DNA of 16,749 nucleotides, taken from assembly GCA_037441385.1 (NCBI GenBank), contig JBBISH010000131.1, positions 1 to 16,749 on the forward strand, read 5' to 3'. The notes beneath the pieces are model-generated. The model ran no database searches, had not been told where the DNA came from, and was given only the letters and a program-made list of their open reading frames with translations. Positions 1,821-16,749 of the stretch are shown here, piece after piece. The position numbers and the translations under genes were made by a program. The number at the start of each line of letters is the position of its first letter. Within the stretch, counting starts at the first letter, position 1. The stretch is from Myxococcales bacterium (lineage in GTDB: Bacteria > Myxococcota_A > UBA9042).

Positions 1821-2675
1821 TCAGCCGTTGTTGCGCTTGCGGCGGCGGCGGTTGCGCTTGCGATCCCCGCCCGCCCCGGTCGCCGTTGCCTCGCCCTGCA
1901 CGGTGAGCGTGAGGGTCAGCGCCCCGCTGGCCTTCTTGGTCCGCAGCTCGCGCAGCGCGTCGCCGGCCAGCGCCAGGATCAGCTCGGCGGCGGTCTCGGC
2001 GCCTCCGCGGCGGGTCACGGTCACAGCCAACTTGGTGGGCTCGCCGTCGGCCGGACCGTCGTCCTCGTCGTCGTCGCACTCGTCGTCGATGTCGTCGCTC
2101 CCTTCGTCCTCGCCGTCCTCTTCCGCGGCGGCGGGCGGGGCCGGCGGCGGATCCGGCTGCTTGCGCAAGGCGTTGAGCTCGGCCAGCTCTTCGGCGTCCA
2201 ACTCCTCGCGAGTCATGCTGGGCACCTTGCCAAAGAGGACGTGGAAGCGCGGCGGCGGCAGGCCGCTGGTCTCGCACACCCGCGACCACAGGCGCTGCAG
2301 GGTCTTGTCGCGCAGCACCTGCAAGAACGCGGCGATGGTCCCGTCGGGCGCCATGGCGTTTTCGAGCGCGGTGTGGGCGTCGTCCAGGGCCTTGGTGGTG
2401 GCGGCGTCCACGGCGCTTACGGTGGCGTCGCGGCGCGCTTGCGAAAACCGCTGGTGGCCGTCGATCAGCTGACCGCGGGCAATCGCGTAGCCGCTCCATA
2501 GCACCTTGGCATAGGTGCGCAAGTACGGGTTTTGATGGTAGCTGAACTTGAGGAGGCCATCGGCCTCGCCCGTGCCGGCGCCCGACGATTTGCTGGTGGG
2601 CAGACCGGCCAGCGAACGTTCGAGGAACAGCAATTCCTCTTTGGCTAGCTGGGGTTGATTGGGGTTCTTGGACAT
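1821..2675 (-). CDS. Hypothetical protein (284 aa) with Pro/acidic low-complexity linker and Arg/Lys-rich C-terminal tail
   Basis: ORF 1821..2792 in the track; protein-like composition begins at ATG 2675 (MSKNPNQPQLAKEELLFLERSL). Contains EEDGEDEGSDDIDDECDDDEDD and ends RKRNRRRRKRNNG. No family recognised. Confidence 0.75.
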   Translation of the reverse strand: MSKNPNQPQLAKEELLFLERSLAGLPTSKSSGAGTGEADGLLKFSYHQNPYLRTYAKVLWSGYAIARGQLIDGHQRFSQARRDATVSAVDAATTKALDDAHTALENAMAPDGTIAAFLQVLRDKTLQRLWSRVCETSGLPPPRFHVLFGKVPSMTREELDAEELAELNALRKQPDPPPAPPAAAEEDGEDEGSDDIDDECDDDEDDGPADGEPTKLAVTVTRRGGAETAAELILALAGDALRELRTKKASGALTLTLTVQGEATATGAGGDRKRNRRRRKRNNG

Positions 2676-2941
2676 TGGTGGCACTCGCTGCAGGCCGCTC
2701 GGGCCGGCATGAACGGGTGATGGCTGCCGGTCGCGACGGTTGCGACTGCGGCGCCGGGACTCTACAAGCTCGCGGTGCGGCGGGCAAGCCAACTGCGCGA
2801 CGGACCGGCAGCCCAGCGATTTCCCCCCAGCCGATATGACAATCGAGTGACGTCTTGGCAGCCCAGCCCGCGCAAAATGCCGCGCGGCGGGCCCGCCCCA
2901 TGCGGCTCAGGCGACGCGGCGGCCATGGACTGGAGGGCGAG

Positions 2942-4807
2942 ATGGTGCTGGGACTAGAGGACATCGACCAACTGCTGGCCGACGAAGAAGCCGACGAGCT
3001 GGAGTACATCCACCTGACGTCGAACGAGACGCTGCTGTCGCCGCGGGCCCTCAAGGTCCTGTCGTCGCCGCTGGGCAATCGTTACCTGCTGGAACACCGC
3101 GACATGCGGCAGGATTCGCCGTCGCGCCTCAACGGCTTCATCTTCAAGGGCCTGAGCCGGGTCAACGCCATCGAGGCTTCGGCCGCCGAGGTGTGTCAAG
3201 AGCTGTTTGGCGCCAAATACGTGGAGTTTCGTTGCCTTTCGGGCCTGCACGCCATGCAGACCACCATGCTGTCGCTGACGGAGCCGGGCGACACCGTGAT
3301 GCGCTTTGGCATCGTCGATGGCGGGCACTTCGCCACCGAGCACCTGATCAAAGTGTTCGGCCGCAAAAGCTGCACCTACGGCTTTGACCGCGCGCGGCTG
3401 ACCATCGACATCGCCAAGACCGCCGAGATTTTCAAGCGCGAGAAGCCCAAGCTCCTGTATCTGGACGCGATGAACTACCTGTTCCCGTTCCCGATTCGCG
3501 AGCTGCGCGAGGTGGTAGGCGACACGCCGATCCTGTACGACGCCAGCCACACGCTGGGCCTCATCGCAGGCGGCCAGTTCCAGAACCCGCTGGCCGAGGG
3601 CGCCGACATTCTGCAGGCCAACACTCACAAGACCCTGTTTGGACCACAAAAAGGCATCATCCTGACCAACAACCGCGAGCTGATCGACCGCATCGGCTAC
3701 AACCTGTCGCAGGGCCTGGTGTCGAGCCAACACACCGCGTCGCTGCTGTCGCTGTTCATCGCCCTGCACGAGACGCGGCTGACCGGCAGGGCGTTTGCCA
3801 AGCAAGTGGTCGAAAATGCGCGAACTTTGGCCGAACGACTGGCCGCGCAAGGCGTGCCGGTGCTGGCCCGCCACGATGGGCAGTTTACCGATAATCATCA
3901 CTTTTTCATCAACTTGACTGGCGTGGCCTCGGCGGCCCACCAGCTCGAACGTCTGCTGCGCGCCCACCTGGTGGTGCAGCGTGGCATGCCGTTCCGCAAC
4001 GTGGACGCGCTGCGGGTGGGCGTGCAAGAAGTGACCCGGCGCGGCTACGGCCCCGGCGAGATGGCGCAACTGGCGGAATGGATGGCGGCCGTGCTGCACG
4101 GCGCCGAGCCCGAGGTGCTGGCGCCAGCGGTGCGGGCGATGGCCAGGCGCTTCGACCAGACCTATTACACGGGCGAAGCGGGCGACGGCACGTTGGATTT
4201 GCCCGCCATCCCGCCGCCGTCGGCCAAGGGGCGCTGGGTCGATTATCGTCACCTGGGCAACGAGTTTGCCATGAGCGACGACCAGTTTGCCGACATTCGC
4301 TCGCTGGGCGCTGCTGCGGGCGACTTCCCCAACCAGACCGATTCGACCGGCAATGTCAGCCTGCGCGCGGGCGAACGGGTGTTCGTGTCGAGCAGCGGCT
4401 CGTACATCAAGCACCTGGCCGACGGGCAAGTGGTGGAGCTGGACGCGGTGGATCCGAGCGGCGAGCTCATCGACTACCACGGCGCGGCGCTGCCCTCGTC
4501 CGAATCGCTCATGCATTTCTTGGTGTATCAAAGCGTGCCCGCCGGCGCGGTCATCCACACCCACTACCTGCTGACCAACCAAGAGGCAGCGGACTTTGGG
4601 GTGGTGGTGGTGCCGCCTCAGGAGTACGCCTCGATCGCCCTGGCGCGGGCGGTGGCCGAGGGCAGCAAGCGCAGCCGCATCGTGTACATCCAGAAGCACG
4701 GCCTGGTGTTCTGGGGCACCGACACTGCCGATTGCCTTGCGCAGGTCCACAACTTCATCCACAACCGCCCGCCACGCCGCGCCGCGGAGGCCGCCTATGC
4801 ATCCTGA
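2942..4807 (+). CDS. flFT: 4-fluorothreonine transaldolase-like didomain enzyme (PLP-dependent L-threonine transaldolase/SHMT-like domain + class II aldolase/adducin domain), 621 aa
   Basis: GGAGG at 2932-2936 precedes ATG 2942. N-domain motifs: HLTSNETLLSPRA, RYLLEH, EFRCLSGLHAMQTT, DGGHF, DAMNYLFPFP, DASHTLGLIAGG, QANTHK(230)TLFGPQKG (PLP lysine), VSSQHTAS, GVQEVTRRG. C-domain motifs: GNVS, SSGSYIK, PSSE..MH, HTH, KHGLVFW (metal-binding His triad). Architecture and motifs match Streptomyces FTase as I recall it; the symbol denotes homology, not proven activity. Confidence 0.88.
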   Translation: MVLGLEDIDQLLADEEADELEYIHLTSNETLLSPRALKVLSSPLGNRYLLEHRDMRQDSPSRLNGFIFKGLSRVNAIEASAAEVCQELFGAKYVEFRCLSGLHAMQTTMLSLTEPGDTVMRFGIVDGGHFATEHLIKVFGRKSCTYGFDRARLTIDIAKTAEIFKREKPKLLYLDAMNYLFPFPIRELREVVGDTPILYDASHTLGLIAGGQFQNPLAEGADILQANTHKTLFGPQKGIILTNNRELIDRIGYNLSQGLVSSQHTASLLSLFIALHETRLTGRAFAKQVVENARTLAERLAAQGVPVLARHDGQFTDNHHFFINLTGVASAAHQLERLLRAHLVVQRGMPFRNVDALRVGVQEVTRRGYGPGEMAQLAEWMAAVLHGAEPEVLAPAVRAMARRFDQTYYTGEAGDGTLDLPAIPPPSAKGRWVDYRHLGNEFAMSDDQFADIRSLGAAAGDFPNQTDSTGNVSLRAGERVFVSSSGSYIKHLADGQVVELDAVDPSGELIDYHGAALPSSESLMHFLVYQSVPAGAVIHTHYLLTNQEAADFGVVVVPPQEYASIALARAVAEGSKRSRIVYIQKHGLVFWGTDTADCLAQVHNFIHNRPPRRAAEAAYAS

Positions 4808-5762
4808 TTTCTTGCACCCGCTGGATTTGGACTCGCCGCTGCACACCGCCACACCGCAGTGGCACTCGCTGCCGATCTCGCGCACGGCTGGCAAGCCGAT
4901 CCATCTGAAAATCGAGGCGTTGCAGCCGGTGGGCTCGTTCAAGATCCGCGGCATCGGCCGGCTCTGCCAAAAGGCGGTGGCGGCGGGGGCGCGGCAGTTC
5001 GTGTCGTCGTCGGGCGGCAACGCCGGGGTGGCGGCGGCCTACGCGGGCAGTCAACTCGGTATCAAGACGACGGTTTACGTGTTCGCTGGCGTGCCCGAGA
5101 CGGCCAAGCTGCGCATGCAGGAGTTTGGTGCCGAGGTGGTGATGGCCGGGCCGACCTGGGCCGAGGCCCACGCCATGGCCAGTGAACTGGCTGAAAAGCA
5201 GGGCGCTTTCTACATCCACCCCTTCGATCACCCCGACCTCTGGGCCGGCCACAGCACGCTGGTCGACGAGGTGGTGGCCAGCGGCTACCGGCCCGACCTG
5301 GTGGTGGTGGCGGTGGGCGGCGGCGGCCTGCTGACCGGCCTGCTGGACGGCCTGGACCGGCACGGTCTGAGCAAGACCAAGGTGTTGGCGGTCGAGACCT
5401 TTGGCACGGAGTCGCTGCACGCGGCGCTGAAGGCCGGCCAGCCGGTGACCCTGCCGCGCATCAATTCGGTGGCGAAAACCCTGGGCGCGGCCCGGGTTTG
5501 CGACGCGGCCTTCGAGCGAGCGCAGCGGCACGCGGTGGAGTCGCTGGTGGTGACCGACGAGCAGGCGCTGCGGGCCTGCCGGCAATTTGCCTTGGACCAT
5601 CGGCTGTTGGTCGAGCCGTCGGCGGGGGCCGCCCTGTCGGCGGTGTACGAGGGGCTGGGCGCGGTGGCGCAGGCCCGCGACGCGCTGGTCATCGTGTGCG
5701 GCGGCGTGGGAATTGCCTTGCGCGACGAGGTGTTCGCTTATGCGCCGCGGCTGCCGGACTAG
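4797..5762 (+). CDS. PLP-dependent L-serine/L-threonine dehydratase (ammonia-lyase), fold type II, SDS/CHA1-like, no regulatory domain, 321 aa
   Basis: GGAGG at 4786-4790, ATG 4797 overlapping the previous gene by 11 nt. Motifs: LKIEALQPVGSFKIRGIG (PLP Lys), SSGGNAG, HPFDHPDLWAGH, AVGGGGL, LVEPSAGA, VIVCGG (Cys as in eukaryote-type serine dehydratases). Confidence 0.88.
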   Translation: MHPDFLHPLDLDSPLHTATPQWHSLPISRTAGKPIHLKIEALQPVGSFKIRGIGRLCQKAVAAGARQFVSSSGGNAGVAAAYAGSQLGIKTTVYVFAGVPETAKLRMQEFGAEVVMAGPTWAEAHAMASELAEKQGAFYIHPFDHPDLWAGHSTLVDEVVASGYRPDLVVVAVGGGGLLTGLLDGLDRHGLSKTKVLAVETFGTESLHAALKAGQPVTLPRINSVAKTLGAARVCDAAFERAQRHAVESLVVTDEQALRACRQFALDHRLLVEPSAGAALSAVYEGLGAVAQARDALVIVCGGVGIALRDEVFAYAPRLPD

Positions 5763-5780
5763 GCGAACGAGAGGAACTCC

Positions 5781-6995
5781 ATGAAAACTCCTGACGTCAT
5801 CGTGGTGGGCGGCGGCATCTCGGGCCTGGCGCTGGCGTTCTTTGCCGCGCGCGACGGCAAACAGGTCCTGGTGCTGGAAAGCAGTGACCGCATCGGCGGT
5901 TGCCTGGACTCGCGCCGCCACGGCGACTACTGGTTCGAGCTGGGCGCCCACACCTGCTACAACTCGTACACCACCCTCATCGAGATCCTGGAGGCCACCG
6001 GCCTTATGGGCAAGCTGGTGCCGCGCGGCGAGGCCCGCAAGGTCTTTGCCCTGTTGCGCGACGGCAAGATCAGCACCATGGGGCCGATGTCGGTGATGTT
6101 CCAGTTCAACTGGCTGGAGCTGCTGGTGTCGCTGCCGATGGGTCTGTTTGCCAGCAAGACCGGCCGGAGTACGGCGGAGTACTACGGCAAGCTGTTGGGC
6201 CGCAACAACTTTGCCAAGGTGCTGGGGCCGTTTTTGTCGGCAGTGCCGTCGCAGGCGGCGGATGGCTTCCCGGCCGAGGGCGCGGGCAGCCTGTTCAAGA
6301 AGCGGCCGCGCCGCGAAGATGTCATCAAGACTTGGACTCTGCAGGGTGGGCTGGGCACGGTGGCCGAGGCAATCGCTACGGTGCCGGGCATCGAAGTGCG
6401 CACGAATTGTGCGGTGCAACATGTCGCGCGGGCAGATGGCGGCTATCAGGTGACAACGGCGAAGGGCGAGGTGCTCGCAGTGCCCCAATTGGCGATGGCG
6501 GTGCCCCCGGCGACGGCGGCGCGGCTGCTGCAGAGCGCGGAACCCCAGCTAGTGAAAGCGCTTTCTGCCATCCAGATGGCCGCGGTCGATACGCTGGGCG
6601 CGGTGGTGGCCAAGGCGGAGCTGAACCTGCCCGACCTGGCCTTTGTGGTGCCGCAGCAGGACACGTTCTTTTCGGCGGTGACCCGCGACGCCGTGCCGGA
6701 CCCCGACCGCCGCGGCTTCGCCTTCCACTTCCGGCCCGGTCAGAGCGCCGCGCTGCAGCGGCAGCGCATGGTCGAAGTGCTTGGTGTGCCAGAGGAAAGT
6801 CTGCAAGCGACCTTCAGCCGCCATACCGACCTGCCGTCGCCGCAGGTGGGCCATGGCGAGCGGGTGGCGGCCCTGGACGCGGCGGTGGCGGGCAAGCCGC
6901 TGGCGCTGTGCGGCAACTACTTCGTCGGGCTGGCCATCGAGGACTGTGTGGCGCGGTCCAAGGCGGAGTGGTTGCGGCTGAAGGCGGCGGGGTAG
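5781..6995 (+). CDS. FAD-dependent oxidoreductase, protoporphyrinogen/coproporphyrinogen oxidase (HemY)-like, flavin amine oxidase superfamily, 404 aa
   Basis: GAGGA before ATG 5781. Rossmann motif VVGGGISGL...VLVLESSDRIGG, FELGAHTCYNSY, TLQGGLGTVAEAI, and C-terminal LCGNYFVGLAIEDCV typical of HemY-like proteins. Shorter than canonical HemY; substrate uncertain. Confidence 0.8.
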   Translation: MKTPDVIVVGGGISGLALAFFAARDGKQVLVLESSDRIGGCLDSRRHGDYWFELGAHTCYNSYTTLIEILEATGLMGKLVPRGEARKVFALLRDGKISTMGPMSVMFQFNWLELLVSLPMGLFASKTGRSTAEYYGKLLGRNNFAKVLGPFLSAVPSQAADGFPAEGAGSLFKKRPRREDVIKTWTLQGGLGTVAEAIATVPGIEVRTNCAVQHVARADGGYQVTTAKGEVLAVPQLAMAVPPATAARLLQSAEPQLVKALSAIQMAAVDTLGAVVAKAELNLPDLAFVVPQQDTFFSAVTRDAVPDPDRRGFAFHFRPGQSAALQRQRMVEVLGVPEESLQATFSRHTDLPSPQVGHGERVAALDAAVAGKPLALCGNYFVGLAIEDCVARSKAEWLRLKAAG

Positions 6996-6997
6996 GC

Positions 6998-7041
6998 GCC
7001 CACTCTGCGCCTCTGGCCCCTATTTGTGGCGCGGGGTGGGC
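6998..7041 (+). terminator. 14-bp stem-loop immediately after the operon's last stop codon (3'-end structure, no U-tract)
   Basis: GCCCACTCTGCGCC (6998-7011) pairs with GGCGCGGGGTGGGC (7028-7041), with two G-U pairs that form only on the + strand; 16-nt loop. Confidence 0.5.
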
Positions 7042-7467
7042 CTCATCGTGTGCCGCTTGACACCTTACGGCACCTGGGGTTGCCTACGGATGTCGTGCTC
7101 AACGAGTCCCAGCCCATCTGGCGTCACCGCCGGACGAGGCGCTTCCCGCAGACGTGAACCAGACTGGGCAGGACCGGCAGTGGAGTCGGCGCCGAACGCG
7201 TGGAGGAGCAAACCCGAGAAAGTTTAGGCGACCGCGCGCAGCTTTCACGCCCGCCGCTCATCCGCTGCAACGCCTGAGTCCGTAGCTCTCGACACGAGCA
7301 CCCAACTGGTGCCGGTTTTCCATAGAGTGCTGCCCACTGATCGATGGGGACCGCGCGCGCGATCCCAAGCATGGTGATGCGACCACCAGGATGCCCTAAG
7401 GTTGGAACCTAACAATTTCATGACGAGTTCATCGGCGTGGGGATTTCGGCGGTGGGTTTGGGCGCCC

Positions 7468-7714: not shown

Positions 7715-9754
7715 ATGAATCACGGACTCCTGTCGTTCTTGAACGACGCAACGCCAACGCGGGCCCGCGGCGCCGATCCACTCTCGTGGCGGCGAACGTT
7801 GGCTCTGGTCGTCGCCTCGCTGACGCTGCTGCACTGCGGGGGTGAGCCGGCCGGCGCGCCCGCCGATGCCGGCACCGGCTTGGACTCGACCCAGGGAGTG
7901 GACGGCGGTGCGGACGCCCCCTTGGCCGTGGACGCGAGCAAGAAGGACGGCAGCAGCAAGGACGTCAAGTACAGCGACGCCCAGCTGTTTCCAGACCTGC
8001 CCGCCAACACCTCGCCGACCGTGGAGTGGCTCACCCCGCTGGAAGGCGCGATGGTGCCGGCCGACACGCCGCTGGTGGCCACCGCGACCATCGCCGATGG
8101 CGAGAGCCCGCCGGCGGACCTGGGCTTGGCCATTACCGTCACGGATCTGCTCGGCGACAATGCCAAGCTTTTCAGCGAGAACGAAGGCCTGGTGGCGTTC
8201 AAGGTGCCGGGGCTGGCGGTGGGGCCGCACAAGCTGATCCTGAGCGTGACCGATGGCCAGGGCGGGATGGCGACGGCCGAGAGGACCGTAACCGCCGTGG
8301 CGCCGCTGCCCGAGCCCACGGTGACCATCAGCCCGGCCAAGCCGGTGGCCGGCGAGCCGCTGCACGCCACGGTGGAAGGGACGTGGCCGCCGGGCACCCA
8401 GGTGTCCGTGCAGTGGACCCGCAACGGCGAGCTGCTGCAGTGGGCGACCAGCCCCGACATCGCCGCGGGCGTGGTCGTGCGCGGCGAGGAGTGGCGCGTG
8501 TACGCCCAGGCGGTGGGCATTGGCACCGCATCGCCCGCAGTGCAGGCCGCGGTGGTCGTGGGCAACACGCCGCCTGGCGCGTTTTCGCTGGCCCTGGACC
8601 CCACCCAGGTCCACGTAGCCGGGAGCACGTGGTGCGGTCTGGCGGCGCCCAGCGTCGACGTCGACGGGGATCCAGTGGCCTACACGGTCCAGTGGGCCCT
8701 GGACGATGTGCCGCTCGCGGCGGACGTGACGGCCAGCCTGCTGGTGCTCGGGTTTGCCAAGGAAGGCAACTTCGCGGTCAACGTGCCGTGCAGCGTGGGG
8801 CAAGTGCTCACCTGCACCGTCACGGCCGACGACGCCCACGGCGGCACGGCCACCGCCAAGGTCAGCACCACGCTGGCGGCCAACCCGGCGTGCAGCACCG
8901 ACGCCAACCCGTGCAGCCCGGCCGCCGACTGCTCGCCCACGGCCACCGCCCCGGTCACCTGCACCTGCAAGCCCGGTTTCGCGGGCAACGGCATCGCCTG
9001 CGCCGACGTGGACGAGTGCGTCGACCTGGCCAACGCCTGCACTGCCGACGCCGTGTGCACCAACAGCGAGGGCAGCTACAGTTGCGCCTGCAAGCCCGGA
9101 TTCCAGGGCGACGGCAAGACCTGCAACGACATCGACGAATGTGCCGAAGTGCCAGGACCTTGCGCGCTCGCCGCCGACTGCACCAACACCGCCGGCAGCT
9201 ACACCTGCACCTGCAAGGGGGGCTACGCGGGCGATGGCTACTCGTGTACGAACGTCGACGAATGCGCCGTGGGCCTGGCGCAGTGCGCCACGACCGCCGT
9301 CTGCACGGACACCAACGGCAGCTACCTGTGCGCATGCACAAGCGGTTTCACGGGCGACGGCTCGACCTGCACCGACATCGACGAGTGCGCCAGCGTGGAG
9401 CTCGCCAACTGCGCCACCGAGGCGGTCTGTCTGAACCTGCCCGGCTGGCACACCTGCACCTGCAAGGACGGCTACGTTGGCAGCGGCGATGTCTGCGAAG
9501 ACGTGGACGAATGCGCCGCCGCCACCCCGGTGTGCAGCGCCAACGCGACCTGCACCAACAGCCCCGGCGACTACCAATGCGCCTGCAACCCGGGCTACGT
9601 GGGCGACGGCCTGCAGTGCGCCGACGTGGACGAATGTGCAACTGGCCAGGACAACTGCAGCATTTTCGCCAGCTGCACGAACAACGACGGCGGGTTCTCC
9701 TGTGAGTGCCAGCCGGGCTACGCCGGCGACGGTACCAACTGTGTGGCGCAATGA
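7715..9754 (+). CDS. Putative lipoprotein with Ig-like beta-sandwich region(s) and 7 tandem EGF modules, 679 aa
   Basis: GAGG upstream of ATG 7715; signal-like WRRTLALVVASLTLLH-C41-GG; NTSPT/NTPP-started beta-rich blocks (LTCTVTADDAHGG); C-terminal D[VI]DEC...CTN..GSY.C.C..GY.GDG..C repeats. Confidence 0.88.
   Translation: MNHGLLSFLNDATPTRARGADPLSWRRTLALVVASLTLLHCGGEPAGAPADAGTGLDSTQGVDGGADAPLAVDASKKDGSSKDVKYSDAQLFPDLPANTSPTVEWLTPLEGAMVPADTPLVATATIADGESPPADLGLAITVTDLLGDNAKLFSENEGLVAFKVPGLAVGPHKLILSVTDGQGGMATAERTVTAVAPLPEPTVTISPAKPVAGEPLHATVEGTWPPGTQVSVQWTRNGELLQWATSPDIAAGVVVRGEEWRVYAQAVGIGTASPAVQAAVVVGNTPPGAFSLALDPTQVHVAGSTWCGLAAPSVDVDGDPVAYTVQWALDDVPLAADVTASLLVLGFAKEGNFAVNVPCSVGQVLTCTVTADDAHGGTATAKVSTTLAANPACSTDANPCSPAADCSPTATAPVTCTCKPGFAGNGIACADVDECVDLANACTADAVCTNSEGSYSCACKPGFQGDGKTCNDIDECAEVPGPCALAADCTNTAGSYTCTCKGGYAGDGYSCTNVDECAVGLAQCATTAVCTDTNGSYLCACTSGFTGDGSTCTDIDECASVELANCATEAVCLNLPGWHTCTCKDGYVGSGDVCEDVDECAAATPVCSANATCTNSPGDYQCACNPGYVGDGLQCADVDECATGQDNCSIFASCTNNDGGFSCECQPGYAGDGTNCVAQ
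8891..9742 (+). repeat. Seven EGF-like repeats (six with calcium-binding [DN]-[VI]-D-E-C consensus), ~123-bp period
   Basis: Six-Cys modules counted in the translation; modules 2-7 start DVDEC, DIDEC, NVDEC, DIDEC, DVDEC, DVDEC. Confidence 0.9.
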
Positions 9755-9762
9755 GGTGGGGC

Positions 9763-12700
9763 ATGACCAGCGGCTTTTCTTTTGGAGTCCGGCCCCTTGC
9801 GGTGGCCATGCTGCTTTTGTTCGCCTCGGCCTGTGGCGATGGCGCGTCGAGCGCGCGAGTCACCGCGCCGGCCGATGCCCACGGCGACGCACCCACGGGT
9901 GACCTGGCGACGGGCGACTTGGGCAGTGCGGACGCGAGCGGCGACGTCGCGGTGCACCTGCCGGGCACGCCCACCGACGTGTCGATCGACTACCTGGCGG
10001 CCGGCCAGCTGAAGATGACCCCCGCCCAGCAAAAGGCGGCGATCGACAAGCTGAAGGCGGGCGGCGAGTTCATCGATGTCCACCTGCGCCCCGAAGTCGT
10101 GATGCTGGACGCCAAGGTCACGGACCAAGCCGTGGTGCTGCCGGATCAGATCCGCCTGCCCAAGGCCGGCAACGAGGCCTTGCTGCAGCTCAAGCCCGGC
10201 GCGCCGATGATCGGCAATCGCTCGGCGTCGGGCAACAACCCGTTCGGTTTCTTGCGCAAGGTCACGTCGGTGCAAGAGATCGGCGGCGAGATCGTCATCG
10301 AGACCAGCAAGGCCAAGTTCTACGAGGTGCTGTCGGGCGCCATGGCGATGAAGATCGACGCCGACGACCTGCAGCTGCTCGACACTTCGGGGGTGGACGA
10401 AGGCATGTACTTTGCGGGCATGGACGGCAAGTTGAAGCCCAGCCCTGCTGGGAGCCGCCGGCGGGCGCGCTGGGGCCGCTTCCGCGCACCGCTGCAGGAC
10501 TTGGACGCCGACGTGACCTACACCGGCGACTGGAGCGCCAGCGCCTCGTTCAACGCGCTGACGTTCTCCAAGAGTGTCTCCGCCGGCAAGGCCACCCTGA
10601 CGCTGAGCGGCACGGCGAGCGCGACCAGCAATTTCTCGTTCAAGCCCTCGTTCTACCTGCAGATGGGCGTGGACTGGTTCGACTTCGAGTATTTGAACGT
10701 GGGCGCTTCTGGCCAGCTCGACCTGGGCGGCGTCATCGACGTCAACCTGCAACTGGCCCTGAGTGGCGCGGTAGACACCAGCAAGGACGCTTCGGATGCC
10801 AAGGACTCGCTCAAGAAGTCTCCGTCCAAACCCGACAAGAAATCGTTCGAGATCGCCGAGCTGGGCCCCTTCGTCGGGCCGACCATCCCGACCCCCATCC
10901 CGATTCCGACCACATTCAAGATCAGCATCATCGCCGACTGCTCCTTCACCATTTATGGCGACCTCCAGTCCAAGATCGAGGGGACGGTGTCGACCAGCGC
11001 CGGCTTTGGCGTCAAGTACGAAGACCCCGACTCGTGCGACTCGGACGACGACTGCTGGACGACGTGCGTGAACGGCGTCTGCGGCGTGGGCGGCGACGGC
11101 TGGACCCTGACGTCGGCGGCCACCTGGAACACCACCAAGACGGTCTCGTTGACCCTGGGCGGCGGCGTCATCGCCGAGTGCGGGGTCACGCCGCAGATCG
11201 AGTGGCTGCTGGCCGACGTCGCGGGACCTTCGATCGGGGTCCGCGGGGCGGTGCGCGGCACCCTGGACTATGCGAGCACGTGCCCCGACTCGACCACGAT
11301 GCTGACTTCGCAGAAGCCCGACGGGGCAACCACACTGACGTTCGAAGTCGGCGTGGACATCGTCATCGGCGCAACGATCGATTTTCTGGTCACGGAGTTC
11401 AACTTCTCGTTCACCGTCTACGAGAAATTCTGGACGATCTGGACCAACACCTGGAATTTCATCGGCGGCGGGTTGGGCTGGTGCCAGGCCGGCTGCGACA
11501 ACGGCTACAAGAACAACCAGGAGACCGACGTCGACTGCGGCGGCTATGTGTGCAATGCCTGCGCCGAGGGCAAGGGCTGCAATTTCAACGGAGACTGTGC
11601 AACGTTCAATTGCACGAGCGGCAAGTGCGGCCCAAAACTGTGCGGCAACGGCGTCTTGGATGGCAAAGAGACGGACCTCGACTGCGGCGGGCCGGCGTGC
11701 TCGATCAAGTGTGGCCTGGGCAAGACCTGCGAGGACAACTCGGACTGCGGCAAGGACTCGACGGGCAAGGCATTGGGTTGCCACCTCACCGTTCCCGGTA
11801 ACCTTTCGATCGGCATGTCGTCCAAGGGCACTTGCCAAGTTCCGACCTGCACGGACTTGTGGACGGGACCCGGCGAGACCAGCGTTGACTGTGGTAGCGG
11901 GTGCCTCTGCCCGGGCAAGCTGTCTTGCCAAAGTAGCTATCAGTGCCTGTCGACTCAGCAATGCTACTACGACGAAAAGCTGGCAAAGAACTACTGTGTG
12001 CCTACGATCAGCGCGGCCTGCTACGGCCAGGCCAACGGCTACAAGGACGGCGACGAGACCGACGTCGACTGCGGCGGCAGTTGTGTCGGTGCGATCAGCA
12101 ACTTGATGCTGTGCGGCCGGGACAACCAGGACATGGAAGTGTGCGGTCCGCAGATGTTCAAGTGCGCCATTGGCGGCGCCTGCAAGACAAGCCTGGACTG
12201 CAAGTCGGGGGCGTGCAACAGCACAACCAAGAAATGCACCGACAAATGCACGGACGGGGTCTTCTCTCCCGACACCGGCGAAACGGATGTCGACTGCGGC
12301 GGTTCGTGCGCAACCAAGTGCGCGACCAGCAAACACTGTAAGATCACTGCGGACTGCGCCGCCGGCTTGGTCTGCACCGGATCACCGTCCACGTGCCAGG
12401 TCTCGCTGTTGACCAATAGCATCAAAGACGGCGACGAGACCGACGTCGACTGCGGCGGCACCAACCCGGCCAAGTGCGCGCTGACCAAGGCCTGCAAGGT
12501 CGACGGCGACTGCGGGAGCGGCATCTGCTCGGTCGGCCTGTTGTGCGTGGACTCGATCTGTAAGAACGGCAAGCTGGACCGCGCCAGCGGCCACAAAGAA
12601 GGCTATATCGACTGCGGCGGCGACTGCCCGGCGTGCGCGATCGGTTCGCCCTGCTACCCCAGCGGCAACGCGCTGTACGTGGCCGACGAGTGCCCGACCG

Positions 12701-15700
12701 GTACCGCCTGCGTGCCTGCGGTGGTGGGCGGCGTCGCCTCGACCACGACCGGCACGTGCGCCGCGGCCAGCTGCACCGACGGCGTGAAGAACGGCGCCGA
12801 GGCGGACATCGACTGCGGCGACGCATTGGGCAAGTGTCCGCCCTGCGGCCTTGGCAAGGGCTGTATCGACAACGAAGCCGATACTGCCTATTCCAAGACG
12901 TGCAAGCAAACCGCCGGCAGCCCCCTGGCCTGCGTCCCGGACGGACCTACCTGCCAGCCCGCGTGCGCCGACGGCGTCAAGACCCTGAAAGAGTCCGACA
13001 TCGACTGCGGCGGCCCGCTGCGCTACTGCGCCACCCGCTGTGCGTTGGGCAAGGGCTGCGACGCCAGCACCGACTGCGCCTCGGGCATTTGCGCGTTTGG
13101 CAAGTGCGCGACCTCGACGTGCCCCAACGGGACGCAGGATGGCACGGAGGCCGACGTCGACTGCGGCGCACCCACCTACAAGTGCGACCCCTTCTGCAAG
13201 TCGAGCCCCACGAAACCCTGCGCGAATGACTGCTCGACGTGCAACAAACGCTGCGGGGTCGGCAAGAAGTGCCTGATCGGCGCCGACTGCGAGAGCGGCT
13301 TTTGCTCCACCGACGGAAAATGCGTCGCGACGGAATGCGAGACCGGTTCGGCCTGCGGCGGTGCGTGCCCCAAGTGCGGGACAGGCAAGCCATGCACTAC
13401 GGGCGATCAGTGCCTTTCGGGCGTGTGCCAGAAGAACGGCCTGTGTGGGCCCTCGTGCTCGGATGGCCTGCAGAACGGCGACGAGGGCGACATCGATTGC
13501 GGCGGCGCGTGCCCCACGAGCTGCGCCATCGGCAAGACCTGCAACAAGCACGCAGACTGCAGCTCCGGCTCATGCAGCTCCAAAGGATTCTGCATCAACC
13601 CGTCGTGCAGCAACGGCGAGTGGGACCCGATGGAAGCGGGCATCGACTGCGGCGGCCTGGCCTGCAAGCAGGCGTGTCCGGCGCAGTCGACCTGTCAGAA
13701 GGACAGCGACTGTCTGTCTGGCAAGTGCGACGCGAACCTCCATGTTTGCCTCATGCCGTCCTCTTGCAACGACAGCAAACTGGACGGCAATGAGACAGGG
13801 ACCGACTGCGGCGGGGTGTGCCTGGGCTGCGCCGTCGGCGTGGCCTGCGCGGTCAACACGGACTGCATAAGCCACAGTTGCGTGGGCGCGTCGGGGTCCG
13901 GCTCCAAGACGGTCCTCGGCAAGTGCGGCAACGCCCCGGCGGTCTCCTGCACAGACAAAGTGGTCAACGGCAGCGAAACCGACATCGACTGCGGCGGCAC
14001 CTGCACCACCAAGTGCGTATCCGGCAAGAAGTGCCTGATTTCAGCTGATTGCACGTCGGGCCTGGGCTGCGACCCGGGTACCCACAAGTGCTCGTCAAGC
14101 ACCTGCGCCGACGGCGTCAAGAGCGGCGACGAGTCCGACGTGGACTGCGGCGGCTCGTGCGTGGCCAGGTGTGGAGTCGGCAAGGTCTGCACCGTGGAGT
14201 TCGACTGCAAAAGCAACTTCTGCAACATGACCACCGGCAAGTGTGCCGCCGATGCGTGCTCGGACGGCGTCCTGTCCCTAGGCGAGGCGGACGTGGACTG
14301 CGGCGGCAAGTGCGCCAAGTGCGCAACCGGCCAAAAGTGCCAGGCGGGCGAGGCTTGCGCGTCTGGCTTCTGCCACGCGACCCTCAAGACGTGCGCGGCT
14401 GGATCGTGCGGCGACGGTGCAGTGGACATCACCGAGACCGACATCGACTGCGGCGGCTCGACCTCGACTTGCAGCACCCGCTGCCTCGTGGGTCAGATCT
14501 GCAAGCTAGACTCGGACTGCCTTTACAATTCGTGCCTGAGTGGCAAGTGCTCCAACGCGTTCTGCAGCAATGGCAAGCTCGATGTGGCCAACCTGGAGAC
14601 GGGGACCGACTGCGGCGGCATCTGCACGGCCTGCGCCGACGGCCAGAAGTGCACAGTGAGCACGGACTGCAAGTCGGGCCTGTGCAGCGCCGGGCTGTGC
14701 AAGAACGTGACCTGCTACGACAAAGTGAAAAGCGCAGGCGAAACCGACGTAGACTGCGGCGGCACCTGCGTGACCAAGTGCGCGACCGGCAAGGCGTGCA
14801 CCATTGGCGCCGACTGCATCAGCACGACGTGCTCGTCGGTCAGCAAGCTGTGCGTGGCCGGCGCGTGCAGCGATCAAGCGCTGTCGCCCGGCGAGACCGA
14901 CATCGACTGCGGCGGCACCACCTGCACGCAGAAGTGCGCCACCAACCAAAACTGCAAGGCCGACACGGACTGCACCAGCGGCATCTGCTCGGTGGCGGGC
15001 AAGTGCGTCACGACCACCTGCGCCGACGGCAAGAAATCCGGCACCGAGACCGACATCGACTGCGGCGGCACCTGCGGCAAGTGCGCCACCAGCAAGCTCT
15101 GCAAGCTGGGCGGCGACTGCCAGAGCGGCATCTGCTCGCTGGGCGGCCTGTGCGTGGCCAGCCTGTGCGAAGACGGCAAGGTCTCGGGCGGCGAGACGGG
15201 CGTGGACTGCGGCGGCGGTTGCCCCAATAAGTGCAAGAACGGCGAGGCATGCGGCGGCACGGGCGATTGCCAGAGCGGGATCTGCTCGGCCAGCAACCTG
15301 TGCGTCGACTCCATGTGCAAAGACGGCGTGATCTCGGGCGGCGAGAGCGACGTGGACTGCGGCGGCCCGTGCGCCCAGAAGTGCGCCACGGCGGCCCTGT
15401 GCAAGCTCGACACCGACTGCGCGAGCGGCGCGTGCGGCGCCAACGGCAAGTGCGCGACCAGCGCCTGCAGCGACGGCAAGCTCGACGGCGCCGAGACCGA
15501 CATCGACTGCGCCGGCGGCTGCCCGGACACGTGCGCCCTGTCCAAGGCCTGCAAGGCCGGCAGCGATTGCCAAAGCGGCGTATGCTCCACCACCGGCAAG
15601 TGCGTCGCCACCACGTGCGAAGACGGCAAGCAGAACGGCACCGAGACCGGCCTTGACTGCGGCGGCGCGTGCCCAACGGGCTGCAGCGTCGGCGGCGGTT

Positions 15701-16749
15701 GCGCGGCGGGCAGCGACTGCCAGAGCGGCCAGTGCGGCGTTGCCGGCAAATGTGTCGCCACGGCCTGCGAAAATGGCAAGAAGGACGGCAGCGAGTCGGC
15801 CATCGACTGCGGCGGGTCGTGCCCAACGGCGTGCGCCGATGGCCAGACCTGCGTCGCCGGAGCTGATTGCGCGTCGACCGTGTGCGCGGCCGTGTCCAAG
15901 ATCTGCGTCGCCACCACCTGCAAAGACGAGGTCAAGTCCGGCACCGAGAGCGACGTGGACTGCGGCGGCACCTGCACGGCCAAGTGCAGCGGCGGCAAGG
16001 CGTGTCAGGTGAACACCGACTGCATCTCGGCCCAGTGCGGCACAGGCAACCTGTGCGTCGCCTCGGCGTGCGACAACGGCAAGCTCGACGCGGGCGAAAC
16101 GGACATCGACTGCGGCGGCCCGACCTGCGGCGCCTGTGCGCTGACCAAGGCGTGCGCGGCCGGCAGCGACTGCCTGAGCAGCGTCTGCTCGGCCGGCCTG
16201 AAGTGCGTCGCCAACACCTGCCTGGACGGCAAGAAGGGGGTCGGCGAGACCGACGTGGACTGCGGCGGCACCTGCGCGGCCAAGTGCGGGTTGACCCAGG
16301 GCTGCGGCGTGGGCGGCGACTGCGCCAGCGGCATCTGCAGTGCGGGCAAGGCTTGCGTGGCCAGCTTGTGCCTGGACGGGGCCAAGACCGGCGACGAGAG
16401 CGACGTGGACTGCGGCGGCAGCTGCACCAGCAAGTGCGCCACCGGCAAGATCTGCGGCCAAGACACCGACTGCACCTCGACCTTCTGCGCGGCCCAGAGC
16501 CTGCTGTGTGTGGCCAATGGCTGCCTGGATCAAGCGGTTTCGGGCACCGAGAGCGACGTGGACTGCGGCGGCAGCTGCAGCACCAAGTGCGCGCAAGGCA
16601 AGAAGTGCAAGGCCACCAGCGACTGCGCAACCGGAGTCTGCAACGCGCTGGGCGTGTGCGCGGCGAACCTGTGCGGCGACGGCGTCAAGAACGGCACCGA
16701 GACCGACATCGACTGCGGCGGCAGCTGTGCGCAAAAGTGCGCGACCACC
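9763..16749 (+). CDS. Giant cysteine-repeat lipoprotein (>=2,329 aa, 3'-truncated): lipobox, beta-rich N-terminal domain, >=33 'ETDVDCGG' 8-Cys repeats
   Basis: Frame +1 translated by hand has no stop from 9751 to the window end. Start is ATG 9763 (GAGGT 5 nt upstream) or ATG 9751 (ATGA overlap with the upstream stop). Signal: [24 protein letters not shown]24-GD. Absent from the ORF track because it has no stop in the window; the ORFs listed here are off-frame or antisense shadows. Confidence 0.92.
11494..16749 (+). repeat. Tandem array of ~50-aa Cys-rich units, consensus CxDGxKxGxETD[VI]DCGGxCxxKCxxGKxCxxxxDCxSGxCxxxxxC
   Basis: 33 CG[GSDA]/CAG-centred units counted (last one partial). In the distal part the DCGG cysteine codon recurs at 15208, 15358, 15508, 15658, 15808, 15961, 16111, 16261, 16411, 16564 and 16714 (150-153 bp period). 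Confidence 0.93.

Follow-up and report, generated by a model that had tools for sequence, protein, structure and literature searches.

In actinomycetes that possess a fluorinase, fluorothreonine transaldolases (FTases) are known to complete the biosynthesis of 4-fluorothreonine; examples are FlFT of Streptomyces cattleya and FTaseMA of Streptomyces sp. MA37. An FTase of Candidatus Kentron has been reported in a genome without flA, fthB or fthC, and such fluorinase-free copies were left unexplained in the accessible text of that study (PMC7162832). Given this precedent, a fluorinase-free FTase is by itself not new. Here we analyze a 16,749-nucleotide stretch of DNA from a Myxococcales bacterium (contig JBBISH010000131.1 of assembly GCA_037441385.1, hereafter the window), which carries a didomain FTase gene at positions 2942–4807. 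The encoded protein shares with FlFT and FTaseMA the two-domain build and all six tested or proposed residues, but it belongs to a separate long-branch clade, comes without a fluorinase, FthB or FthC, and is accompanied by a fixed dehydratase, which suggests a catabolic rather than a biosynthetic role. It is a true member of the FTase family, in a new variant that looks catabolic.

The FTase open reading frame (forward strand) follows a GGAGG just 5' of its ATG and specifies 621 residues, free of internal stops. Pfam models for SHMT and Aldolase_II match residues 7–381 (E = 3.7e-30) and 468–602 (E = 2.9e-16), respectively, and the NCBIfam FTase model TIGR04506 scores 773 bits against a cut-off of 650, covering model positions 2–604 of 609. 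The SHMT family model reaches 230 bits, under its cut-off of 335, and the protein has two domains, so it is no SHMT; a separate SHMT-like gene lies elsewhere in the genome (on C45). Identity to FlFT is 49% (301/612) across both domains, 56% for the pyridoxal phosphate (PLP)-dependent transaldolase (S) domain and 39% for the class II aldolase-like (A) domain. The S domain comprises residues ∼1–411 (2942–4174, +) and the A domain residues ∼445–608 (4274–4765, +). An AlphaFold model of the protein has a mean pLDDT of 91.3 and a pTM of 0.90, and its best structural matches in the PDB are Methanocaldococcus jannaschii SHMT and ObiH, over the N-terminal domain; no FTase was found among PDB sequences searched with the protein. 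The initial annotation had called this a didomain FTase homologue, and the call holds, with every motif it quoted recovered. Production of 4-fluorothreonine and Zn binding are predicted properties.

In the S domain, H129, D200, K230 and R358 align with ObiH H131, D204, K234 and R366, whose roles we take from the available part of PMC10495429. The PLP lysine K230 and the A-domain residues N471, H539, H541, E561 and H586 are all present and correspond to K237, N484, H551, H553, E573 and H598 of FTaseMA (residues as given in the accessible text of PMC7162832), a mapping made by motif order and spacing rather than by direct alignment to the MA37 protein. The A domain also carries the G-N, S-S-E and H-x-H residues typical of FucA. 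The match to FucA is confined to the first 100 residues of this domain, for which a single-sequence model gave a pLDDT of 40. Within it, S519-S520-E521 aligns with FucA S71-S72-E73, and all 45 aligned FTases share E521 (4500–4504, +). The corresponding FucA glutamate, that of the PSSE motif, is catalytic. The residue proposed as catalytic in FTaseMA is E573 (PMC7162832, accessible text), which maps to E561 (4622–4624, +). Because the FucA glutamate pairs with E521 and not with E561, that assignment may need revision. We considered PSSE as a marker of sugar-phosphate aldolase activity peculiar to the clade; it is present in 16 of 16 clade proteins, but as 3 of 13 fluorinase-adjacent FTases have it too, it does not mark the clade.

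The gene directly 3' of the FTase gene, which had gone unmentioned in the initial annotation, encodes a 321-residue PLP-dependent Ser/Thr dehydratase (4797–5762, +). Its ATG (4797) overlaps the FTase stop codon (4805–4807) by 11 nt and is preceded by a GGAGG at 4786–4790, an arrangement (4786–4807, +) that suggests translational coupling. The protein has the PALP fold, contains SFKIRG and SSGGNAG motifs, and is nearest to human serine dehydratase (SDH)-like and SDH enzymes, i.e. of the eukaryote type. In every clade locus that extends past the FTase gene (17 of 17; several are near-duplicates or congeners, and L110, which ends inside the FTase gene, is excluded), a dehydratase gene lies directly 3' of it, versus 0 of 20 other didomain loci (each with >400 nt downstream; 8 further contig-edge loci excluded). 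A fluorinase shows the opposite pattern, 0/17 versus 15/20. Among 30 genomes, the dehydratase orthologue was found in 13/13 carriers of the FTase gene, always adjacent to it, and in 0/17 non-carriers. The split between carriers and non-carriers cuts through two genera, and the genes flanking the pair vary from lineage to lineage.

Protein searches with the dehydratase recovered a 20-member subclade set off by a score gap. All 20 have Phe96, where 100 of 100 other homologues have proline; G98 and V99 are likewise altered, so that the conserved V-x-P-x-T/S-T loop is not retained. Purifying selection acts on the dehydratase and on both FTase domains (dN/dS 0.06–0.23 in three pairs; 0.14 for the A domain). 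Judging from these sequence features, the partner dehydratase is specialized, and it is likely tuned to 4-substituted threonines.

Could the two enzymes act independently, with the dehydratase serving general Ser/Thr catabolism and traveling with the FTase for no other reason than a common use of threonine? The dehydratase is the sole Ser/Thr dehydratase-type gene detected in G000, the genome that holds the window (E ≤ 1e-6), and no IlvA/TdcB-type gene of G000 was matched by tblastn at this threshold with the dehydratase as query; its closeness to human SDH-like enzymes would also fit a general role. However, non-carriers do without it, in the panel it was never found apart from the FTase gene, and its subclade, with unique loop changes, mirrors that of the FTase. 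We regard independent action as quite unlikely.

To place the FTase, we built a tree of 59 rows in a quick IQ-TREE run, the root of which is unsure. Didomain FTases, the window protein included, form a 54-row clade (SH-aLRT 100) apart from single-domain L-threonine transaldolases, as the initial annotation had anticipated. Within it, the dehydratase-linked FTases group in a single clade of 19 rows (SH-aLRT 100, branch 0.76), which is nested in a 99-supported group together with Ca. Kentron, archaeal proteins, L113 and L114 (L numbers denote loci). The FTase of Ca. Kentron sp. DK is a non-actinomycete relative in the same supergroup, but it is 52% identical and lies outside the dehydratase-linked clade. 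At L113, the start of a fluorinase gene follows the FTase gene immediately (84% identity over 38 residues, up to the contig end), and L114 has YbaK, PF01887 and PNP genes at the FTase locus. Because these two loci sit in the 99-supported group, the ancestor of the dehydratase-linked FTases was probably halogenase-linked; this is the simpler reading, with the root unsure.

One member of the dehydratase-linked clade has been assayed, the only one we found in the literature. DbTTA (MBI5609283), from locus L002 (contig JACRCU010000288.1), is 88% identical to the window protein and had no activity (PMC10495429, available part). The assayed protein is a 382-residue contig-edge fragment, matching our P0017, that starts with LTNNRE at window residue 241 and lacks the counterparts of H129, D200 and K230. 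Since the fragment lacks the PLP lysine, its inactivity says nothing about the full-length enzyme.

The host is not an actinomycete, in line with the initial annotation: the two nearest named relatives of the FTase (86 and 88% identity) come from metagenome-assembled genomes (MAGs) of Myxococcales and Deltaproteobacteria, and others are titled Myxococcota. Two loci (L006, L011) bear the title 'uncultured Enterobacteriaceae', yet their genes group with Myxococcota sequences and the titles look wrong. Among sampled genomes, the FTase model has matches in 13 of 401 from the phylum, 14 of 107 from the class and 13 of 37 from the family. With respect to GC content at third codon positions, the pair ranks in the 71st and 91st percentiles among called genes, so recent transfer into G000 is not indicated. 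No relative was found in viral contigs, and among plasmids there was only pSCATT (2 records).

That the window lacks a fluorinase, FthB and FthC had been pointed out before, and we could extend this to G000 as a whole (90.9% complete): PF01887 and TIGR04507 profiles had no match, and tblastn with flA, fthB, fthC and flH queries returned nothing at E ≤ 1e-4. PF01887, the fluorinase/chlorinase family, was absent from 14/14 carriers and present in 2/19 non-carriers (G154 and G401); by eye, the G154 protein is an ordinary DUF62-type protein. FthB had no match in the 17 clade loci, whole-genome searches for FthB/FthC having covered G000, and the flanks of the pair contain no non-ribosomal peptide synthetase (NRPS) and no exporter.

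These absences bear on the idea of an end product, a halogenated or other β-hydroxy amino acid synthesized by the hosts with a halogenase that has no relation to PF01887 or escaped assembly. This would fit the family's function, and flFT and flA of S. cattleya lie on different replicons; carrier MAGs are 81–97% complete, so a halogenase could be missing from the assemblies. On the other hand, there is neither PF01887 in any carrier nor an FthB/FthC match in G000, an NRPS or exporter is lacking beside the pair, and any such product would be broken down by the partner dehydratase. We consider an end-product role very improbable. The initial annotation had suggested an organohalogen metabolizer; in the sense of a producer this is not supported, whereas in a catabolic sense it is our best reading. 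Its other proposal, a non-fluorinated native substrate, finds no support for the family as a whole, given the 15 fluorinase-linked loci above, several of them non-actinomycete-like, and could apply to the present clade only.

L-threonine transaldolases generate β-hydroxy amino acids, and Ser/Thr dehydratases convert such compounds to 2-oxo acids and ammonia. For the pair, we think it likely that an aldehyde X-CH2-CHO reacts with L-Thr to yield 4-X-threonine, which is then converted to a 2-oxo acid and NH3. This scheme is common to the three kinds of X weighed below. The fixed coupling of FTase and dehydratase would therefore most likely serve disposal or salvage rather than biosynthesis. One caveat here is that our ranking of candidates for X reflects judgements based on single-lineage signals and was not computed.

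In our preferred reading, which we hold to be plausible though somewhat short of an even chance, X is fluorine or another halide, and the pair detoxifies fluoroacetaldehyde with release of fluoride. The Zn-type A domain and the PLP-dependent S domain, as family membership and intact residues suggest, would turn X-CH2-CHO and L-Thr into 4-X-Thr and acetaldehyde. The dehydratase, given its invariant linkage, would then eliminate the β-hydroxyl, and with X = F the resulting enamine would lose fluoride. In this way the dehydratase would stand in for FthB/FthC as a safeguard against 4-fluorothreonine. Fluoride would finally be exported by CrcB, a step suggested by gene order in one genus only. A plausible source of the aldehyde would be a 5'-fluoro-nucleoside or fluorosugar of fluorinase-bearing neighbors or prey, processed by the host's MTAP, MtnA and DrdA-like aldolase. 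The reported product of 4-fluorothreonine defluorination is 4-hydroxy-2-oxobutanoate. Threonine deaminase is a housekeeping enzyme in producers, whereas here the SDH-type enzyme is dedicated, FTase-coupled and found in non-producers. The same second reaction is reportedly carried out by threonine deaminase (Wu and Deng 2020, as cited in a sentence of PMC10324308). FTaseMA preferred fluoroacetaldehyde among six aldehydes (PMC7162832, accessible text).

Genomic evidence for a link to fluoride comes from crcB. In three genomes of one genus (G074, G089 and G144), the sole crcB match lies 3' of the dehydratase gene on the same strand; at L004, crcB begins 43 nt past the dehydratase stop and has its own GGAGG. 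The usual crcB type of the family adjoins a thioredoxin gene (trxA) in the four loci inspected. Half of the family carriers (5 of 10) have the pair-linked type (g5), against 1 of 16 non-carriers (Fisher P = 0.018; three carrier lineages). A g5-type crcB was also seen at L192:3-2865 (G369), flanked by livK- and livH-like genes within an amino-acid ABC transporter operon.

Several points weigh against the fluoride reading. crcB is not beside the pair in 11 of 14 carriers, the window included; it is near-universal (27/33 genomes) and mobile, and the three adjacent cases represent one lineage. The only Rfam matches across the 11 sources scanned were two tRNAs and one cobalamin riboswitch; no fluoride riboswitch was among them. 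No haloacid dehalogenase scored above cut-off in the 5 genomes tested. Natural organofluorines are rare, yet the pair is present in 13 of 37 family genomes, and the source of fluoroacetaldehyde is putative. The FTase may also have shifted in specificity, because 23 alignment columns separate the dehydratase-linked clade from 15 fluorinase-linked proteins, some of them near the PLP site (S27, A131). For the full-length clade enzymes, a role in fluoride metabolism is a prediction, and it leaves certain sulfur-related signals unexplained.

Those signals point to methionine. If X is a methylthio group, 3-hydroxymethionine would be the product of the FTase and 4-methylthio-2-oxobutanoate (KMTB) that of the dehydratase, yielding an oxygen-independent methionine salvage, which we regard as possible but doubtful. 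Methylthioadenosine would be converted by MTAP to methylthioribose 1-phosphate and by MtnA to methylthioribulose 1-phosphate, then cleaved by the A domain or a separate DrdA-like aldolase to dihydroxyacetone phosphate (DHAP) and methylthioacetaldehyde; KMTB would be turned into methionine by transamination or imine reduction. The known DHAP shunt (MtnP/MtnK, MtnA, Ald2/DrdA) would supply the aldehyde, and the host has MTAP, MtnA and a DrdA-like aldolase, the last a stand-alone class II aldolase of G000 with DrdA (6BTD) as its best PDB match. In the shunt as described, methylthioacetaldehyde is reduced to methylthioethanol, and no direct return to KMTB is described in the accessible parts of PMC6302742 and PMC10986504.

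The proposed chemistry would end exactly at KMTB, and gene content agrees in part. MTAP is present in 33/33 genomes and mtnA in 13/14 carriers and 18/19 non-carriers, while mtnB is absent from 5/14 carriers versus 0/19 non-carriers (Fisher P = 0.008). The same five carriers lack mtnD, as does one fragmented non-carrier. However, G000 and 9/14 carriers keep mtnB–mtnD, and the five losses represent about three lineages, seen in 90–95% complete MAGs, and may just reflect anaerobic life. At the level of individual loci, Rrf2–cysK lies directly 5' of the pair on the same strand in L023 and L108. A sulfur-starvation cluster abuts the pair at L005:12903-21826 (tauD, YeeE/YedE, a family 2A encapsulin with cysteine desulfurase cargo, cysK and cysA), and an OCD/BhcD-like reductase gene follows the pair in L111. 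In no locus does an mtn gene adjoin the pair. A spermidine-synthase-like gene lies downstream of the pair at a distance of 70 nt in G052 and 5.7 kb in G324, so that sulfur-related genes flank the pair in three lineages in all, but its family is not enriched (10/14 carriers versus 17/19 non-carriers), and we dropped it as a co-occurrence marker; MetH (in 5/5 genomes) and MetY (below the model cut-off in 5/5) were not discriminating. FTaseMA accepts propanal and larger aldehydes (PMC7162832, accessible text). The methylthio reading leaves the crcB linkage unexplained. In a combined version, to which we give a similarly low but appreciable chance, an oxygen-independent and carbon-conserving return from the DHAP shunt to KMTB would make MtnB and the dioxygenase MtnD dispensable in some lineages, and the pair may double as a natural defluorination route with crcB attached.

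A third kind of substrate would be a common non-halogen aldehyde, most likely glycolaldehyde, with 4-hydroxythreonine converted to 4-hydroxy-2-oxobutanoate and on to homoserine/threonine or to pyruvate and formaldehyde. FTaseMA uses glycolaldehyde with a kcat/KM of 4096, compared to 7473 for fluoroacetaldehyde (PMC7162832, accessible text), and glycolaldehyde is likewise hydrated, fitting the proposed role of the A domain. Class II aldolases able to make such aldehydes are found in 30/30 genomes tested, and ackA–pta lies near the pair in L001 and L002. Yet no neighbor in any locus suggests glycolaldehyde, pentose or glycol metabolism, and neither the crcB nor the mtnB–mtnD pattern would be explained, making this substrate unlikely. 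The suggestion in the initial annotation that glycolaldehyde gives 4-hydroxythreonine, here as a route to vitamin B6, is improbable as well, because the dehydratase would destroy the product and pdxA, present in all 5 genomes inspected (4 carriers, 1 non-carrier), is unlinked to the pair.

The two-step scheme, with glycolaldehyde and in general, parallels the β-hydroxyaspartate (BHA) shunt, comprising BhcC aldolase, BhcB dehydratase and BhcD imine reductase (bioRxiv 10.1101/2022.08.08.503134, in the part available). In both, an aldehyde and a glycyl unit form a β-hydroxy amino acid that meets a dehydratase. The resemblance extends to the OCD-family reductase of L111, but the enzyme families and the substrate differ, and the pair is not a member of the BHA cycle: the BhcB model scores 114 against a cut-off of 550, and for L111 the BhcD model scores 186 against 500. 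L111:8001-12314 is the deepest member of the dehydratase-linked clade and lies on a contig of 51% GC. Its genes for FTase, dehydratase and, 335 nt on, an OCD/mu-crystallin reductase have a BhcC–BhcB–BhcD-like order, and a divergent gene upstream has a weak DNA alkylation repair match.

We found neither FTase–dehydratase pairs nor Myxococcota FTases described in the mainly open literature searched, although some of the genes may appear in McMurry and Chang 2017 or in the supplement of PMC7162832. The fixed partner narrows the question posed by fluorinase-free FTases to a two-enzyme system with three candidate aldehydes, and a published negative assay can now be traced to a fragment without the PLP lysine. 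If X is fluorine, the pair would constitute a dedicated natural route of C–F cleavage, unlike fluoroacetate dehalogenase, and natural organofluorines would have to be common enough for selection in roughly one third of the genomes of a bacterial family. With a methylthio group as X, the pair would represent an undescribed anaerobic methionine salvage route. In either case, these loci offer a new source of full-length FTases and of a dehydratase probably adapted to 4-substituted threonines.

Downstream of the pair in the window lies a co-oriented gene for a HemY-like FAD oxidoreductase (5781–6995, +). As it is a neighbor in the closest loci only and occurs in non-carriers too, it is probably not a third member of the module. 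No sigma-70 promoter or terminator was matched at 2500–7300. The window also encodes large cysteine-rich proteins (7715–9754, +; 9706–16749, +, open; 2–1342, −, open), with EGF/calcium-binding EGF repeats, a protein of >2300 residues in which 'ETDVDCGG' recurs many times, and another cysteine-rich reading frame. G000 has two further class II aldolases, one on C11 and the other on C6, next to a reading frame that by eye resembles EutN/CcmL. Another candidate, P0112, resembled an FTase–dehydratase fusion; it is a 552-residue single-domain transaldolase with a short N-terminal PALP fragment, found on one contig.

Fluorinases above the TIGR04507 cut-off lie beside FTase genes at L116, L121, L123 and L124 (also L113 and L122), on contigs of 33–66% GC, several of them not actinomycete-like; from these sequences, fluorometabolite clusters appear to reach beyond Actinomycetota. 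In four such metagenome clusters, a conserved protein of 600–690 residues (L121:2881-4692, L122:5916-7961, L123:4843-6720 and L124:11440-13512; 36–47% mutual identity) adjoins the fluorinase, YbaK and FTase genes. It has no Pfam or NCBIfam match; ESM Atlas suggests an AAA-type ATPase (with high confidence), and it may be an unknown fluorometabolite gene. A Micrarchaeota FTase gene at L012:2423-6866, in a locus without fluorinase, is followed by genes for a KamA-like radical SAM protein, an LtaE-like aldolase and a GNAT protein. Finally, a major vault protein homologue is encoded directly 5' of the FTase gene at L112:1867-5423, on a contig of 30% GC.

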